From an uncultured archaeon (GTDB lineage: Archaea; Asgardarchaeota; Heimdallarchaeia; Heimdallarchaeales; Heimdallarchaeaceae): 31,075 nucleotides of DNA. The notes beneath the pieces were generated by a model. That model was not told the origin of the DNA. It saw only the letters and a list, made by a program, of their open reading frames with translations, and ran no database searches. Below are positions 1,321 to 22,669 of this stretch, in pieces. The stretch lies in assembly GCA_964549075.1 (NCBI GenBank), contig CAZJUB010000028.1, positions 1 through 31,075 on the forward strand, given 5' to 3'. Positions within the stretch are counted from its first letter, which is position 1, and each line of letters opens with the position of its first letter. A program made the translations under genes and the position numbers.

Positions 1321-1387
1321 TTCGTTTTATATTTTCAAAGGGATAAATAAATCTAACTGAAAAAAAGAAAACAAGCTAGAAGAAAAA

Positions 1388-3136
1388 CTAGTTATCTAAT
1401 ACACCGCTTACTTTCATATTGTTCAAGATTTGCTCTATCATTCTTTGTTGATCAGTTTCTACTTCACTAGTCTCTATTTCAATATTCAAGAGTAAAGCAC
1501 TTGTTTCATTGTATGTTATGCTTACATGATCAACATCTAAATCTTTTAGATCAGGATCTTTGCCTATATCCCAAACATATGTAACTATAATATTGTCTCT
1601 ATCATATTCTACATTTTTTGTAAGAATCTCCTTCATAGCCATATAATCTGCAAGTTTTTCTATGTTGATTTTCTTATTCAGAGACATATTGATTGTGAAA
1701 TCTTTGAGTGCTTTTCTTTCCATACGAGTCTTACTCCATCGAAGATATGCTACTATTCCTATCCAACATGCAAGACTGATTATGAACAAAATGAGCGTTC
1801 CATATTTTGACATAAGTCCTCCAAAAACCGTATCAGAAGACGAATATTCTCCCACAGCGAAAGCGAATACTTCCAAGATTATACTTCCTGCTAAGATTAA
1901 CTCTATCATATCTATTGCTTCACCGGTTCTTGTATTTGCTTGTAAAACTTGATTCATACTCTTTGTATTTCTAGTCATTGCTTTATTCATTTTTCGCATT
2001 TGCATTTCAGATAAGGTAGATATATAATTCCGTGTCCCCTCGAGTTCTGTTAATAAACCGTTTATGATTTTATCAGCTTCTTTTACTCTTTCTCTTGAGA
2101 TATTTAGACCTTTTTCAACCTCATAAAAATCATTTAGATCCTTAATATTATTGTCTCCATAAATCTGTAACAACTCAAAAGTAGAATCTTTCAGAAATTC
2201 TTGTATTTGGCTAACTAAACTAATAGTACTTGTAAGTAAGGTTATCTCTTCCTGAACTCTATTTAGTGCTTCTGTGTTTCCTTTCACAGCTTCTTCAACT
2301 AAACTCTTGATTTGATTTGATTGATCATATAATTCCCAAATTCGAGACATAAAACAATCCACAAAAGTGCTTATAGCATGTTGAATCCCCCAAAATGTTA
2401 TCTGATATTCTTTCTCTTCTGTAAAGCTATCAAGAACCACTAAAGTACCTCTAGTACCTTTGAAGAAAAGATTATTTCCAAGTTGGTAATGTAAATGTCC
2501 TTCACCAATTATTTGGCTAATTTCAATTTCACAATCCTCACCATCACAATACTCATTTATATCTTCATATCTGATGTTTATGTCTTCACCAATATAACAG
2601 ATTGTTTTAGGTCGATGCATAGGATTTCCAAATATAATCTTGAGGAAATTTCTTTGAAATTCTGTGAGAAGACTGTCTATAACTACTGAGCTATCCTGTG
2701 ATAAATCTGCTACAACACGAGATAATTTATCTAGAGACATAAAACTATTATGTCCTTCCAATTCACGTAGATTCAAGGAGTAGACAACAAAACCTGATTT
2801 TGATATAAAAATAGCCATCTCTTCAATTTGCACAATTCCTTCTTCTTCAGGTAAATCAATGGTTGCTTCTAAATTTACAAAACTATCTAAAACATAATCA
2901 TTTACTAAAACTTTTGTGTGCTTTCCCTCAGAAGCAAAAATAGGCACATCTGGAGATTGATCAATCAATCCTGTGAGCAAAGTTTTATGCGCACCTTTCT
3001 CAATATCTAGTTTTTTATTTAGTTCTCTGAGTTGATTAGAATCAAAAGGTAACCATTCTATAACAAAAATTTTTGGATTTTTAATAAATAAAATCTCCGA
3101 AAGTTCGTCTTTAATATTGTTTGCAACTTGTGTCAT
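1388..3136 (-). CDS. Uncharacterised membrane protein: large soluble domain, long helical stalk, two TM helices, small C-terminal domain (CorA-like architecture)
   Basis: 582 aa ORF with an amphipathic helical run (about aa 260-405). Hydrophobic segments IELILAGSIILEVFAFAV and LILFIISLACWIGIVAYL. Start overlaps the upstream stop (TAATG at 3134-3138). Confidence 0.75.
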   Translation of the reverse strand: MTQVANNIKDELSEILFIKNPKIFVIEWLPFDSNQLRELNKKLDIEKGAHKTLLTGLIDQSPDVPIFASEGKHTKVLVNDYVLDSFVNLEATIDLPEEEGIVQIEEMAIFISKSGFVVYSLNLRELEGHNSFMSLDKLSRVVADLSQDSSVVIDSLLTEFQRNFLKIIFGNPMHRPKTICYIGEDINIRYEDINEYCDGEDCEIEISQIIGEGHLHYQLGNNLFFKGTRGTLVVLDSFTEEKEYQITFWGIQHAISTFVDCFMSRIWELYDQSNQIKSLVEEAVKGNTEALNRVQEEITLLTSTISLVSQIQEFLKDSTFELLQIYGDNNIKDLNDFYEVEKGLNISRERVKEADKIINGLLTELEGTRNYISTLSEMQMRKMNKAMTRNTKSMNQVLQANTRTGEAIDMIELILAGSIILEVFAFAVGEYSSSDTVFGGLMSKYGTLILFIISLACWIGIVAYLRWSKTRMERKALKDFTINMSLNKKINIEKLADYMAMKEILTKNVEYDRDNIIVTYVWDIGKDPDLKDLDVDHVSITYNETSALLLNIEIETSEVETDQQRMIEQILNNMKVSGVLDN

Positions 3137-3765
3137 TATTTCTTCACCAATTTATCTGCAATTCTGAGGAAATAAGGTTGAGAAACATAACTTACATCCT
3201 CGCTTTCTAAGAAATCTAGTTCAAAATCCGAGATATCGCATTTAGGACAATCAATTTTTATGTCTGGTTCACTTCCCATATTCATGTAAAAATCCAGATG
3301 CGTTTTGCAATGTTCGCAATAAAATAAATGATGTACTTCATCTTTAACATCTTGGGGAATAAGTTTGAGATATTTAAGACCATTTTCTGTGATTCTATAT
3401 GCAGTAACAAATCCATGTTGAGAAGTACTTAATCTTATCTTTTCTAGAATATCTAATTCTCTAAGATCTTCAATATCGTCTACTCCTTCATAAGAAATGT
3501 TTACAGTAAAACTACTTCTTCCAAAGAATTGTATGGATGTTGGAGCATAATCATAGGTTTCATATGTTCCTTTTACGATCTGATAATATATTACTGCCCA
3601 CAAAGGAAGTTCTTTTACCCAAATTTTTTCGTTATTTGTTTCCAAAAAATGATTCCCCCCTCTTACCCATTTAGTGAGATAATCCACAGTATATAACAAG
3701 ATTTGTTGGTCTCTTGTTAAACTTGATATATCTATATTATTCCCTGAAGATAGTTTGATTGACAT
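3136..3765 (-). CDS. Uncharacterised protein with winged-helix-like core and Zn-ribbon
   Basis: 209 aa. DIEDLRELDILEK...AYRITENGLKYL resembles a wHTH recognition helix and wing. CEHC and CPKC pairs. Ends EDVSYVSQPYF. Confidence 0.75.
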   Translation of the reverse strand: MSIKLSSGNNIDISSLTRDQQILLYTVDYLTKWVRGGNHFLETNNEKIWVKELPLWAVIYYQIVKGTYETYDYAPTSIQFFGRSSFTVNISYEGVDDIEDLRELDILEKIRLSTSQHGFVTAYRITENGLKYLKLIPQDVKDEVHHLFYCEHCKTHLDFYMNMGSEPDIKIDCPKCDISDFELDFLESEDVSYVSQPYFLRIADKLVKK

Positions 3766-3839
3766 AATTTAAAAAAACTATTTTAAGATATTTTAATCTT
3801 TCTGGATAGGAAAACGAAAAGGAAGAAACAAGTGAGAAG

Positions 3840-4466
3840 TTATCTCCGATTCTCTAATTCTTTGTCTTTTTTAGCTATTTTTTCAACTAGGTCTTTGAAA
3901 CCTTTTGGCTCTTGTTCTTCTTCAAAAGTGAATACAACAGGTCGTCTTTTTCTTTCAACATCTAAAGCTCTTGCAATTTTACCTGCTTCATATTTTTCCT
4001 TTACTTGAGATTTCTTCCCTATCCAAACATAAATTTCATCATATGCATCTAAAACAAAAGAATCATTAGATTTCAAATTTTTATATTTGATAGGTACTTC
4101 CTTTGTAGTAATTGTTCCATCATTCTGTTGAATTATCTGAAGAAGTTTATAATCAATATCTACTTTTAATTCAAAATGCTTCAAGAAACCAGGAGTATCT
4201 CCTTCAGCAACTGCAAAATCTAGAAGTTCTTTGAACTCGTCTGGTTCTTCTCCTTCCATCACAGTTTTAATAAGAAGATCTTTGTTTTCTTCTTCTACTA
4301 CTTTTGCAGTCCATGCACCTACAGCTTTATCATCACAATAGGATTTTGAACCTAACCAAATCCAAATGTGTGTTGGTGTTGTTATAAGGTATACGTCACC
4401 ATTAAGGAATTTGTACGGTTCTTCTATAGGTTTTAGTCTTTTTCTTATTACGTGATAGACATTCAT
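3840..4466 (-). CDS. Two-domain gelsolin/villin-family protein (Asgard 2DGel type)
   Basis: Two gelsolin repeats: GDVYLI...IWIWLGSKS...DDKAVG...EGEEPDEF and LKSNDSFVLD...IYVWIGKKSQVKEKYEA...EEEQEPKGF, joined by a DTPGFLKH linker. Confidence 0.92.
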   Translation of the reverse strand: MNVYHVIRKRLKPIEEPYKFLNGDVYLITTPTHIWIWLGSKSYCDDKAVGAWTAKVVEEENKDLLIKTVMEGEEPDEFKELLDFAVAEGDTPGFLKHFELKVDIDYKLLQIIQQNDGTITTKEVPIKYKNLKSNDSFVLDAYDEIYVWIGKKSQVKEKYEAGKIARALDVERKRRPVVFTFEEEQEPKGFKDLVEKIAKKDKELENRR

Positions 4467-4488
4467 GATATTACGTATAAAAATGATA

Positions 4489-4552
4489 ACATAAAAGATT
4501 TATGAAAAAAGCAATTGTTATTTTGTTTGCTCAACTCGATAAACTTTAATAT
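4489..4552. promoter_or_regulatory. Back-to-back archaeal BRE/TATA promoters (gelsolin and 4574 gene)
   Basis: Minus strand AAATCTTTTATGT ends about 22 nt before the ATG at 4466. Plus strand AAACTTTAATAT (4541-4552) lies 21 nt before the ATG at 4574. Confidence 0.5.
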
Positions 4553-4573
4553 TTCAATGATGATAAGCTCTAT

Positions 4574-5242
4574 ATGAGCAATTTAGAAGATGAAGAGTCT
4601 ATTTTTGATGATGAGGAAGAAGAACCTATCTGGAAACAAATAACTGAGAAGATTAAACCTTATCTTACAAAAGAAGATATCATCAATATGGATTTAGATA
4701 GTTTTTCTGCACTTGTCAAAAGATTATATGGTATTCAAGAACTTACAGAAAATGAGATGTCGTATGCTAAGAAAAACAGAGACCTAATTCTAATTCGTAT
4801 GGGACTTTTACACAATATACCAGATTTAACTGAAGAAGATTTAGAAATAGCTATGAAACAAATAGCTGTTAGATTAGCTACCTATTACTTTCAAAATAAC
4901 GTTTCAAATTCCTTAGACGAAGCTCAAAATCAAGTTCTTGAAGTTATGAAAAGTGGATTTTCCTCTGCAGTTACAGTTAGTCTGAATCCAGAGGAAGAAA
5001 TAGTCAATCTTAGAGAAAAACTTGCAATTATCTCAAAAGTTAACTTAGATAATGCTAAGGATATCGCAACATTGCTTTCGAAAACTAAAGATAATCTGAT
5101 GACTATAGGTATTTCAGGTTCGGTATTCTATGAAATTGATAAATTCTGTCAAATGCTTAAAAGGCAAAGAGAGGAAGACCTTCCTACAAAAAATGATATT
5201 ATTGAAGCTTCGTTCGAATGGCAAATGAAAATCCAGAAGTGA
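4574..5242 (+). CDS. Hypothetical all-helical protein with acidic N-terminus
   Basis: 222 aa ORF with host-like codon usage; starts MSNLEDEESIFDDEEEEP; no motif recognised. Confidence 0.75.
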   Translation: MSNLEDEESIFDDEEEEPIWKQITEKIKPYLTKEDIINMDLDSFSALVKRLYGIQELTENEMSYAKKNRDLILIRMGLLHNIPDLTEEDLEIAMKQIAVRLATYYFQNNVSNSLDEAQNQVLEVMKSGFSSAVTVSLNPEEEIVNLREKLAIISKVNLDNAKDIATLLSKTKDNLMTIGISGSVFYEIDKFCQMLKRQREEDLPTKNDIIEASFEWQMKIQK

Positions 5243-5247
5243 GTAGA

Positions 5248-5970
5248 ATGGAGGAAGAACTGCAAATTCCTAAAATTCCAACTCTTGAATCACAAGAAAA
5301 GGATTTTGAGGAACAACCTGAGGAAAAATCAGTAAAAGTTCTTCAAACAATTACAACCAAATTAAAAGAAACTGTTAAACTTGAGATGTTTCTACCACAA
5401 ATTTATCTCTGGATAGAAGATAGGCTAAAAATAGGACCAACACTAGTTATTGGGAATAATATAGGCGATTTTGCAATAAGTCTTTCAGCTAGAGTTCCAA
5501 GTGTAATTGCAAGAGAAAGCACTTCCACTTATGTATCTCCTATTGCAGAAGTCACTGATGCATCACATTTAGAAAAAATAGATTTCAAACCTTTTGATCT
5601 GGAAAAGATAGAATCTATGCAGAATGTGTTTCTAAATATTATAGTAATTTTTGCTTTAAGAAAATTAGAGAGAGAGAAACAGAAGCTACTTTTAAGAGAA
5701 TGTAAAAGAATGTTGTCTCGTGATGGGCAACTTATAGTTATCGATGAATTTTATCCAAAGTCAATCTTTTTGTTTCCAATCACACTTGCGAAAGAAGGAA
5801 TTAGATCGTTTAGAACTGTAATACTTAAGAAAAAAATCGATAAACCTATTAAGAAAATCGATAAATTAGCTGATGAATTAGAATTGAAGTTTTTCGATGT
5901 TAAGTATGATGCAGGTGGAAGAGTAAGAACATATGTTTTTACAAAACGTTGGGGAGCTTTAGTTAGTTGA
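5248..5970 (+). CDS. Class I SAM-methyltransferase-fold protein with degenerate motif I
   Basis: LVIGNNIGDF at the motif I position; IFALRKL...KLLLRECKRMLSRDGQLIVIDE matches post-II/III motifs. ATG 5248 preferred over 5218 because it avoids overlap with the upstream gene. Confidence 0.65.
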   Translation: MEEELQIPKIPTLESQEKDFEEQPEEKSVKVLQTITTKLKETVKLEMFLPQIYLWIEDRLKIGPTLVIGNNIGDFAISLSARVPSVIARESTSTYVSPIAEVTDASHLEKIDFKPFDLEKIESMQNVFLNIIVIFALRKLEREKQKLLLRECKRMLSRDGQLIVIDEFYPKSIFLFPITLAKEGIRSFRTVILKKKIDKPIKKIDKLADELELKFFDVKYDAGGRVRTYVFTKRWGALVS

Positions 5971-12463: not shown

Positions 12464-13300
12464 CTACGTTAGTATTGCTGCTATCAAAGGTTCAATGAAA
12501 TTATCCAAGAACATCATAATTACAAAACCAATAATCACTCCGTAAGTAACTTGTCTTGCATGTTTTTTAGTGTGCGTCTCAGGAATAATCTCATCAACTA
12601 CTACAAAAATCATAGCACCTGCAGCGAAGGCCATACCAAATCCTAAAAAGAAATGTGCAACAGTAACAGCTGAAACTCCAATCACAGCCCCAAACGGCTC
12701 CACTAATCCTGTAAAAGCAGCAATCATAAAAGCTTTCTTCTTTGAATAACCTTCACGTAATAATGGCATAGCAACAGCTGTTCCTTCTGGGATATTCTGC
12801 AATCCTATTGCTATGGCAACTACTGAACCTCCTGATATATCTCCATTACCATAACTTACTCCTACTGCTAAACCTTCAGGAAAATTGTGTATTGTGATAG
12901 CGATAATAAACAACCAAGTTGCAGCTAATCGCTTACTAACAGTACCTTCAGGTCCAGTTATAAAATGTTTATGAGGTGCCCATTTATCTATAAGATCTAT
13001 AAATATCATTCCAATAATTACACCTAGTGAAACAATCCAAATATTATCTAAGATGAAGGATGAACCAATGGTAATTGGAGGAACAGTTTCAGGATCTAAA
13101 GCTGGTACTAATAAACTGAATGCAGAAGCAGCAAGCATTACTCCAGCAGCAAAACCTAGAAGTAAGTCTAAAGTCTTATCACTAATATCCTTTTTAAAAA
13201 AAACTGGTATTGCTCCAATAGCAGTTGCTAATCCTGCTGCCAAGGAACCACCAGTACCTATCAATATAATTTGCCAAGTAGCTAAAGCCATACTAACCAC
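12464..13300 (-). CDS. ZIP-family divalent metal transporter (GufA/ZupT-like)
   Basis: GFAAGVML, HNFPEGLAVG, QNIPEG, GLVEP, AAGAMIFVVVDEIIPE. Start may be the ATG at 13291. Confidence 0.95.
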   Translation of the reverse strand: MVSMALATWQIILIGTGGSLAAGLATAIGAIPVFFKKDISDKTLDLLLGFAAGVMLAASAFSLLVPALDPETVPPITIGSSFILDNIWIVSLGVIIGMIFIDLIDKWAPHKHFITGPEGTVSKRLAATWLFIIAITIHNFPEGLAVGVSYGNGDISGGSVVAIAIGLQNIPEGTAVAMPLLREGYSKKKAFMIAAFTGLVEPFGAVIGVSAVTVAHFFLGFGMAFAAGAMIFVVVDEIIPETHTKKHARQVTYGVIIGFVIMMFLDNFIEPLIAAILT

Positions 13301-21433: not shown

Positions 21434-22669
21434 TTAAAATAATAGAATAAACATCAGAACTAATATTGATGTTGTCACTAAATCAGCACTGGAACTTAAT
21501 AGTGGATTAACTAGATTATCTGGATCAAGACCAAATTTAAATGATAGAAATGCAGCAGATAGTGCTATAACACTTATTATCACAAACGAGAGAAAATTAG
21601 TTATAAGTAATAATCCTAAAATCCTTAAGTAAATTAAGAATGTAATTCCCTGAGGAAATAAAAGAACCCCAATTATACTCATTAAAGATACAATTAGTAT
21701 TGCCCCAGTAACTATTCCCAAATAAGTTATCAAGAAATCTTGTGTTTTAAGAGATTTAAGGGAAGGTTTTATACTCCCTAGATGTAGTTTTGTTGAAGTT
21801 GTATTAGCAAGGATAGAATTTTGACTTCCAACTGAACTAATAATAGCGGGATAAAAGACTATGATTATTGGAGAGAGGATTGATGAGAGAGAGGCTAAAA
21901 CTGAACCTGTTCCTGTTGCAATCAAATTTGTTATCGTTAGAACTGGTAGCGATTGTGATATGCCTTTCATGAAAAAATTACTTTGTCTGAGCTTAACGAT
22001 TGCAAAAATAATAAAAACGGTTGAAATCACTAGAAGCGGGATTCCTAAAAATAAATAGAGATGCACATTTTCTTCCCAAGGTCGATACACCCAACATATT
22101 AGAAAAAATACAATGGTTATAATTATATCATTTACAGATGATGTCACGGGATAAACATACAAATCTGGATCTTTCTTTTTCTTGTAGATAAAGAAAGCTA
22201 ATAGAAATGTGATTAACATAGAAACAGTTGCAGTTAATACAAATGTTGTAATGGTAATAGCAAAGATTTTAAGAATATATTTTAGTGGATTGAAGGGAAG
22301 CGTATAAAGTTTCATTAATATGCCGATGATAGATGTTACGGTTCCTATCAAAATTGCATCATAAATTGATAAAAAGAATATTAATACAATTAATTCAATA
22401 AAATTATCCGTGTTTTTTCTCCATGATGGTTTGATGGTCCCCAGATGTAAAGCTGTACCAAGCTTTCCAGTAAGAATACCATTTATATCACCTCGTACAG
22501 TAAGTAGAAGAGGATAAATCAGGAAAACCCATGGTAGTATCGGTTGTAAAGGTTTTAATAATGTAGCTGCACTCCCTGCAGCTAAACCTGTTACACCAAA
22601 AATCATTCCACCTAATACAGTTAGTGTAAATCCTGCATATAGAGAGAAGGTGGAACGATTCGTTTTCAT
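21434..22669 (-). CDS. MgtE/SLC41-type magnesium transporter with two tandem membrane domains
   Basis: RGDINGIL..KLGTALHLG...DPDLYVYPVTSSVND and GSQNSIL..STKLHLG...GLDPDNLVNPLLSSSAD; about 10 TM helices. Confidence 0.88.
   Translation of the reverse strand: MKTNRSTFSLYAGFTLTVLGGMIFGVTGLAAGSAATLLKPLQPILPWVFLIYPLLLTVRGDINGILTGKLGTALHLGTIKPSWRKNTDNFIELIVLIFFLSIYDAILIGTVTSIIGILMKLYTLPFNPLKYILKIFAITITTFVLTATVSMLITFLLAFFIYKKKKDPDLYVYPVTSSVNDIIITIVFFLICWVYRPWEENVHLYLFLGIPLLVISTVFIIFAIVKLRQSNFFMKGISQSLPVLTITNLIATGTGSVLASLSSILSPIIIVFYPAIISSVGSQNSILANTTSTKLHLGSIKPSLKSLKTQDFLITYLGIVTGAILIVSLMSIIGVLLFPQGITFLIYLRILGLLLITNFLSFVIISVIALSAAFLSFKFGLDPDNLVNPLLSSSADLVTTSILVLMFILLF

Follow-up and report, generated by a model that had tools for sequence, protein, structure and literature searches.

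The window analysed here is a stretch of 31,075 nucleotides (nt) from contig CAZJUB010000028.1 of an uncultured archaeon of the Heimdallarchaeaceae (assembly GCA_964549075.1), whose genome of 3.2 Mb is 89.7% complete. Its subject is a pair of open reading frames (ORFs) on the minus strand, a small-subunit gene followed by a large-subunit gene, whose products are termed here the small and the large protein (Table 1). The two genes overlap by one base, shared between the stop codon of the first and the ATG of the second, and this TAATG junction, already noticed in a first-pass annotation made from the letters of the DNA, is borne out by the ORF coordinates and by the plus-strand letters CATTA. 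The A/T-rich intergenic region upstream, containing TATA-like runs, is likely the promoter of both genes, and the region downstream, whose coding strand contains runs of oligo-T, is possibly an archaeal terminator.

Both proteins contain dense blocks of conserved residues. In an alignment of 20 sequences, the small protein has invariant W49, K51, E52, L53, Y71-D72-Y73, P75, N89, E93, D96, E99-D100-L101, C153, C173, C176, E189-D190, Y193, and Y198. The 13-sequence alignment of the large protein shows invariant E27-W-L-P-F-D32, N34-Q35, and G429-E430, the last opening a 'GEY' signature encoded by GGA GAA TAT (coding strand, 1844-1852). The motif blocks quoted in the first-pass annotation are present and coincide with these invariant columns. 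Hydropathy analysis of the large protein indicates two membrane helices, at about 410-428 and 447-465. A chance pair of ORFs is excluded by the homologues, near and remote, that both proteins have and by an adjacency kept across Asgard families.

Table 1. Features of the gene pair and its immediate flanks, in window positions.
Feature	Position	Strand	Description and basis
Small-subunit gene	3136..3765	-	209 amino acids (aa); ORF list; PF27231 'MJ1567'
Large-subunit gene	1388..3136	-	582 aa; ORF list; PF27230 'MJ1566_N'
TAATG stop/start overlap	3134..3138	-	Plus strand CATTA; letters read
Upstream intergenic region, putative promoter of the pair	3766..3839	-	A/T-rich, TATA-like runs; suggested by sequence
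Downstream intergenic region, putative archaeal terminator	1321..1387	-	Coding-strand oligo-T runs; suggested by sequence
Winged-helix domain, small subunit	3325..3720	-	Residues ~16-147; AlphaFold2 model
CxxC...CxxC zinc-ribbon-like hairpins	3202..3324	-	C150, C153, C173, C176; residues ~148-188
C-terminal E-D-V-S-Y...Y motif	3172..3201	-	Residues 189-198
Predicted cytoplasmic N-terminal alpha/beta domain, large subunit	2435..3088	-	Residues 17-234; E-W-[LI]-P-F-[DG]-x-N-Q motif; model
Helical bundle and stalk helix	1922..2419	-	Residues 240-405; pLDDT mostly 82-94
First membrane helix	1847..1921	-	Residues ~406-430; E412, G417, E422, G429-E430 conserved
Second membrane helix and basic stretch	1709..1828	-	Residues 437-476; hydropathy and model
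Extra C-terminal alpha/beta domain	1409..1699	-	Residues 480-576; beta-alpha-beta4-alpha in model
Gelsolin protein, two repeats	3840..4466	-	208 aa; PF00626, 1.8e-21; directly upstream of the pair

Family membership and linkage in Asgard archaea

Both proteins are already catalogued in Pfam, in families named after two uncharacterised proteins of Methanocaldococcus jannaschii and carrying no functional term, PF27230 being MJ1566_N and PF27231 being MJ1567 in Pfam 38.1 (Atlas listing). Precomputed annotation assigns these domains to the window proteins and to relatives: PF27230.1 is found on a protein 100% identical to the window large protein and on 26 of its 27 other matches, and PF27231.1 on 31 of 31 relatives of the small protein, including a full-length one with 96% identity; the assignment of the window small protein is made via such near-identical relatives, its exact sequence not being among those listed. 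The consecutive locus tags suggest that MJ1566 and MJ1567 are neighbours too, and occurrence in archaea other than Asgard is taken solely from the Pfam family names and Atlas taxon summaries. Records bearing the names Candidatus Heimdallarchaeaceae or Heimdallarchaeota supply the nearest homologues. A record titled 'Candidatus Bathyarchaeia archaeon' is genome G090 of the window's own class, probably a label mismatch.

The first-pass description of both proteins as uncharacterised agrees with their standing as Pfam families without a function. NCBIfam and a Pfam copy without these two families gave no above-cut-off match for either protein, and a sequence search of the PDB with profiles of both families returned nothing below E 0.0075. 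A search of a paper library found no mention of PF27230, PF27231, MJ1566, or MJ1567, and 'CorA-like' occurred in none of the papers it listed. The main text of PMC12962969, whose supplements could list the family, does not mention CorA, Mrs2, magnesium, gene fusion, stramenopiles, or oomycetes.

Profiles of both families were searched against 400 Asgard genomes, detecting the large gene in 51 and the small gene in 52. Comparison of the two result tables by eye gave 48 genomes with both, the small gene lying directly upstream on the same strand in 46 of them; in the remaining two (G280 and G329) the matches are at contig ends. All matches in the three large-only genomes (G024, G110, G117) are truncated, that of G110 at a contig end and those of G024 and G117 covering the C-terminal part of the profile only and starting less than 1 kb from the contig start, and the matches in the four small-only genomes (G138, G139, G298, G321) are weak or truncated. 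All 20 retrieved Asgard loci, spanning 15 family codes, have the small gene followed by the large gene, and longest-ORF coordinates put the two in overlap or no more than 24 nt from each other; a contig scan for relatives, reaching Heimdall-type contigs only, covered 15 loci. For the loci of family f31, the best matches are proteins labelled Thorarchaeota. With this co-occurrence and adjacency, the partnership that the first-pass annotation had proposed is well supported.

The large protein occurs in two lengths. Short forms of about 480-510 aa, found in Asgard families f8, f22, and f25 with the small gene upstream, end after the two membrane helices, whereas the long forms of Asgard archaea and eukaryotes, to which the extra C-terminal domain is confined, continue beyond them. 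One short-form locus (G283:C74) has two tandem small genes (75-656, 833-1444) before a single large gene (1448-2935). In the complete genome of Ca. Heimdallarchaeum endolithica (CP084167.1), an in-frame TAG interrupts the large gene (3992-4297, 4307-5737), and the deposited protein has 476 aa.

The large gene is present in 10 of the 24 further genomes of the window's genus. In all nine retrieved congeners without the pair, the gelsolin gene adjoins the ATP-binding cassette (ABC) ATPase gene, with gaps of 93-380 bp and other synteny intact, and tblastn found no remnant of either gene at these loci, indicating that both genes come and go together, as one unit, at a fixed site. Comparison of the intergenic DNA of empty and filled sites gave weak colinear matches only, with no clear target-site repeats. 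Such patchiness, in the genus as across the Asgard genomes, implies that the function is dispensable.

Fused eukaryotic homologues and genomic surroundings

A statement in the first-pass annotation, that the pair exists as one uncharacterised and often mis-annotated protein in protists, proved accurate on both counts. A profile search for longer proteins returned 99 with PF27231 followed by PF27230 in their precomputed domains. Hidden Markov models (HMMs) of both families match 172 of 299 collected proteins, in the order small then large in 172 of 172, with a linker of median 20 aa (one of the 172 being a 153-aa fragment). In Aphanomyces invadans, the single protein H310_13202 aligns with the window small protein over residues 49-188 (30% identity, E 1e-15) and with the large protein over residues 252-815 (24% identity, E 6e-44), the latter alignment extending through residue 564 of the large protein and hence into its C-terminal domain.

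The family is common to archaea and eukaryotes. Oomycete sources of the fused form (Oomycota, Stramenopiles) are Lagenidium giganteum and three Aphanomyces species, the taxonomy of A. invadans having been checked; green algal sources are Pycnococcus provasolii (Chlorophyta) and a Tetraselmis entry; and further sources are the cryptophyte Guillardia theta (Cryptophyceae) and MMETSP/EukProt transcriptomes, including that of the diatom Corethron. The named fused matches are spread over several supergroups of protists, with none from animals, fungi, or land plants among the named hits seen. An exhaustive profile search for the large family gave 626 representatives of clusters at E<=1e-3; 191 of them reach E<=1e-30, and many are fused. 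Relatives of one fused protein lie on metagenome contigs, some with the gene in several separate ORFs, as would be expected of a gene with introns, and others about 3 kb long and carrying that gene alone.

Comparison of the window proteins with the fused homologues (A. invadans H310_13202, L. giganteum N0F65_004720, P. provasolii) shows the same domain order, the same motifs, and the C-terminal domain. Shared residues in the small part include W49, Y-D-Y-x-P, N89, E93, E-D-V-S-Y, and Y198, and in the large part E27-W-x-P-F, Q161, D271, and the pattern of the first membrane helix. The eukaryotic forms differ in being one polypeptide, in having lost the zinc-ribbon-like cysteines, and in carrying Q instead of E at position 412 in 14 of 14 named rows. 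E189 and Y193 of the C-terminal E-D-V-S-Y motif are each kept in 13 of 13 named eukaryotic and 124 of 125 other fused forms, the motif lying about 20 residues before the large-subunit N-terminus in fusions. Taken with the linkage of the genes in Asgard archaea, the fusion makes it very probable that the two proteins form an obligate two-subunit complex shared with eukaryotes.

The mis-annotation concerns several family entries named 'WD repeat-containing protein 35', including the P. provasolii protein. One representative of 1507 aa begins with a true WDR35/IFT121 half (PF23390, 1e-101), behind which the MJ1567 and MJ1566 domains lie at 832-1303; whether a merged gene model or a real fusion, this protein probably gave rise to the 'WDR35' labels. 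Other N-terminal additions in fused eukaryote-type forms are a SprT-like metalloprotease (3 clusters), ubiquitin (1 cluster), and the unnamed PF27687. The eukaryotic N-terminal extensions are acidic, which by composition would make them unlike organelle presequences.

Around the pair, the other window genes are of housekeeping type, encoding an ABC transporter, MazG, a class IV aminotransferase, glutamate dehydrogenase, ZIP, MgtE, an M3 peptidase, and DegV. The upstream gelsolin is a typical Asgard 'eukaryotic signature' protein; as a clue to the function of the pair it was rejected, its position reflecting genus-level synteny only and the gene being absent from five other loci. A 222-aa protein without a family match (4574-5242, +) overlaps a 250-aa, weakly methyltransferase-like protein (5218-5970, +) by 25 nt, an arrangement syntenic in nine of nine congeners examined.

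Predicted structures and candidate function

The AlphaFold2 model of the large protein, built from 13 sequences, has a mean predicted local distance difference test (pLDDT) of 74.8 and a predicted TM-score (pTM) of 0.60. In its N-terminal alpha/beta domain, E27 is retained in 91 and P30 in 93 of 93 family rows. Helices at 240-284, 288-329, and 340-430 follow, the last spanning 90 residues and running into the first membrane helix, and a six-residue loop leads from it to the helix at 437-476, with the basic stretch ...YLRWSKTRMERK after the second membrane helix. In the first membrane helix, position 412 is E or Q and 422 is E or D throughout the family (Asgard, eukaryotic, and short forms), G417 is invariant, and the residue after G429 is E or D in most long forms. 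Structure searches gave no fold match covering the C-terminal domain at 480-576.

This predicted layout is that of CorA, Mrs2, and ZntB. AlphaFold2 secondary structure and hydropathy show an N-terminal alpha/beta domain, a helical bundle, a stalk continuous with the first transmembrane helix (TM1), a short outer loop after a conserved glycine, a second transmembrane helix (TM2), and basic residues, in agreement with the helical stalk, two membrane helices, and GEY signature described in the first-pass annotation. Foldseek against the PDB returned 29 matches at E<=0.001, the best being 8tmc_C (2.8e-5, prob 1.0), and among the matches listed, the best 24 of the 29, all are CorA, ZntB, or Mrs2. 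In VIA-align, which works independently of Foldseek, the top match is the cytosolic domain of E. coli CorA (5n77_A; Z 11.9, root-mean-square deviation (rmsd) 4.0 over 146 residues, model 24-385), and a second search gave the soluble domains of M. jannaschii CorA and ZntB at Z 8.8. A CorA-like fold of the large protein is therefore predicted with moderate confidence, and a true CorA-type fold is probable on the same modelling. Differences from CorA include G-E-[YI] in place of G-M-N, acidic residues inside TM1, the extra C-terminal domain of about 100 aa, and a dedicated partner subunit encoded upstream or fused; sequence homology is not detectable.

The small protein is modelled (pLDDT 75.6, pTM 0.72) as a winged helix, with a helix-turn-helix followed by a beta-hairpin wing, and then beta-hairpins, matching the wHTH-like core anticipated in the first-pass annotation. 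Most top rows of a wide VIA-align search are winged-helix proteins with Z 7.0-9.3, their matches spanning model residues 7-156; they include the winged-helix domain (WHD) of ORC/Cdc6 (Z 9.3), MukF (Z 8.3), and MarR/PadR proteins (about 7.4), with other folds, among them DarTG and topoisomerases, interspersed. Foldseek found no match at E<=0.001 for this model, the best rows being PadR, RTP, and ORC (prob 0.8-0.99, E>=0.0075). The four cysteines of the CxxC/CxxC element can be read directly in the sequence as C150-x2-C153 and C173-x2-C176, with strands predicted at 158-188, and C150, C153, C173, and C176 are kept in 15, 20, 20, and 20 of 20 Asgard split forms. At these positions, cysteine is outside the three commonest residues in 13 named eukaryotic and 125 other fused forms, and Pfam Zn_ribbon_8 matches the small protein at E 0.0078, below the family cut-off.

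While alike in fold over residues ~7-156, the small subunit differs from the ORC/Cdc6, MukF, and MarR/PadR domains in lacking a sequence family match with them, in being acidic, and in being probably membrane-associated via its partner. Its isoelectric point (pI) is 4.96, and 18 of 20 family members lie between 4.4 and 5.3. This acidity, the acidic and aromatic character of the conserved residues, and the permanent tethering in fusions lead us to read the winged helix as a protein-binding module, and the small subunit is unlikely to be a DNA binder. A membrane-sequestered transcription factor, with a DNA-binding small protein that its membrane partner retains or sets free in an anti-sigma-like manner, would account for the winged-helix fold, the MarR/PadR regulators among the matches, and the CxxC...CxxC ribbon, but is very improbable given the low pI, invariant residues that are mostly D, E, Y, and N rather than basic, the loss of the ribbon cysteines in the fused forms examined, a fusion that ties the domain permanently to a membrane protein although the eukaryotic membrane is not beside DNA, and the highest scores going to the protein-binding winged helices of ORC/Cdc6 and MukF.

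The preferred reading, which we hold to be about evenly balanced between right and wrong, is a two-subunit cation channel of CorA fold with a winged-helix accessory subunit; stated more broadly as an ion channel or transporter, the function is held with confidence at or slightly below that level. In such a channel, the large subunit would assemble as a homo-oligomer, a pentamer by analogy with CorA, and E/Q412, G417, E/D422, and G429-[E/D] would line the cation path. The basic residues after TM2 would fit a cytoplasmic C-terminus, and the small subunit may dock on its partner's N-terminal cytoplasmic domain, serving an obligate accessory or gating role.

Several observations weigh against this channel. 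The Foldseek TM-scores are 0.12-0.37 with rmsd of 13-22 A. The comparison suggested by the first-pass annotation does put CorA, ZntB, and Mrs2 first, with modest scores and with Z values tied with those of unrelated helical chains: in VIA-align, unrelated helical proteins reach Z 11.7-10 and SPX domains Z 9.3-11, and the guidance for that tool warns that long helices scoring below about Z 13 may share a common arrangement only. The model rests on just 13 sequences, and pLDDT falls to 45-69 over its membrane region (~390-480). A Pfam search at E<=1 gave no match for the large protein; PF01544, searched against the window genome, matches not the large gene but a canonical CorA carrying YGMNF on another contig (G000:C22:24914-25774, E 1.2e-75); and hhalign of the 13-sequence large alignment against an 11-sequence Heimdall CorA alignment gave a probability of 2.3%. 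The GMN signature is absent, G429-E430-Y431 standing in its place. Since neither a sequence match nor the GMN motif was found, the large protein is not filed as a CorA family member. The genome already has, besides that CorA, MgtE (21434-22669, -) and ZIP (12464-13300, -), and the patchy occurrence and dispensability of the pair count against the channel as well.

The same structural scores bear on another explanation, namely that the complex is a non-conducting membrane scaffold, tether, or sensor, whose coiled stalk and cytoplasmic domains would recruit or detect a partner or signal at the membrane, for example in membrane remodelling or stress signalling, and that its CorA likeness is a common helical arrangement. 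The scores of CorA-unrelated helical proteins (Z 10-11.7), the lack of a CorA sequence signal, and an extra C-terminal domain without a fold match fit such a protein, and the SprT-like protease and ubiquitin domains of some eukaryotic versions suggest regulation at the protein level rather than transport. However, the Foldseek rows listed belong to the CorA superfamily, the topology matches CorA element by element, and a plain anchor would hardly account for two conserved acidic or polar residues inside the first membrane helix together with its G-[E/D] end. This explanation is considered unlikely.

CorA-family effectors occur in type III CRISPR systems, and by analogy the pair could be a membrane-damaging defence or abortive-infection module whose small subunit senses an invader and opens a CorA-like effector. 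Cassette-like presence and absence at a fixed locus, with nine of nine empty sites clean, the patchy distribution, and the layout of a sensor gene beside a membrane-protein gene are in keeping with this. The module is nevertheless decidedly improbable: at E<=1 neither protein matched any PADLOC family, the surrounding genes are of housekeeping type and the window contains none for defence or mobile elements, sequences in the large-protein tree cluster according to genome family, and a single fused protein is kept across Chlorophyta, Stramenopiles, and Cryptophyceae.

Phylogeny and significance

Phylogenetic analysis consistently unites the eukaryotic forms. In a FastTree tree of 93 large-domain rows, the 14 named eukaryotic rows (14/14) form one clade with support 100, which lies within a set of unnamed forms, fused and split, and beside Asgard families f18, f19, and f21 (support 96). 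A quick IQ-TREE search on 50 rows, from which P0132, P0134, and L045 were dropped and in which 13 of 53 unnamed rows were kept, agreed with this tree, though its backbone was less well supported (88). An approximately unbiased (AU) test on this 50-row tree rejected the 23 Asgard long forms as a clade (p 2e-74); the result was set aside because the group was named after the tree had been seen, and the unnamed rows nested among the Asgard long forms may themselves be Asgard.

Trees restricted to labelled rows allow both halves of the protein to be compared. In the large-domain tree (38 rows; P0132 and P0134 dropped), the eukaryotes form one clade (12/12, support 100/100), eukaryotes and Asgard long forms separate from Asgard short forms (100/100), and the eukaryotes group weakly with f18, f19, and f21 (80/78); of 200 bootstrap trees, 10% recover the Asgard long forms as a single clade. 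The small-domain tree, also of 38 rows, likewise has the eukaryotes as one clade (12/12; SH-like approximate likelihood ratio test (SH-aLRT) 99), again weakly beside f18, f19, and f21 (82). The backbone is weak in the large-domain tree above and unresolved in a further labelled-only tree. The same weak placement of both halves fits one fusion of an Asgard-type operon, with support that is not decisive. In a fuller scenario, an Asgard MJ1567-MJ1566-type operon fused once, long ago, and the resulting gene passed to eukaryotes by descent from their archaeal ancestor, encoding a CorA-fold cation channel with a built-in winged-helix gate. Besides the trees, this scenario draws on the C-terminal domain, which among Asgard forms the long ones alone have in common with eukaryotes; it is put forward tentatively and is, on present evidence, doubtful.

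Should the ancestral fusion be true, the pair would represent an unlisted 'eukaryotic signature' membrane complex. Its operon-to-fusion history is clear and datable on trees. Should the channel reading hold, the tie between Asgard archaea and eukaryotes would here be a complex for membrane transport and not the usual cytoskeletal or trafficking proteins, and the family would be a distant, unstudied branch of CorA-fold channels with a different pore signature and a second subunit that is needed; to our knowledge, neither such a pore signature nor a required second subunit has been described for CorA, Mrs2, or ZntB. Dozens of protist proteins labelled 'hypothetical' or wrongly 'WDR35' could be re-annotated, and the two genes make a simple system for expression and testing. 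For the archaea themselves, the clean presence and absence of the pair within a genus points to a niche-specific role, so that ecological comparisons could aid in identifying the substrate.

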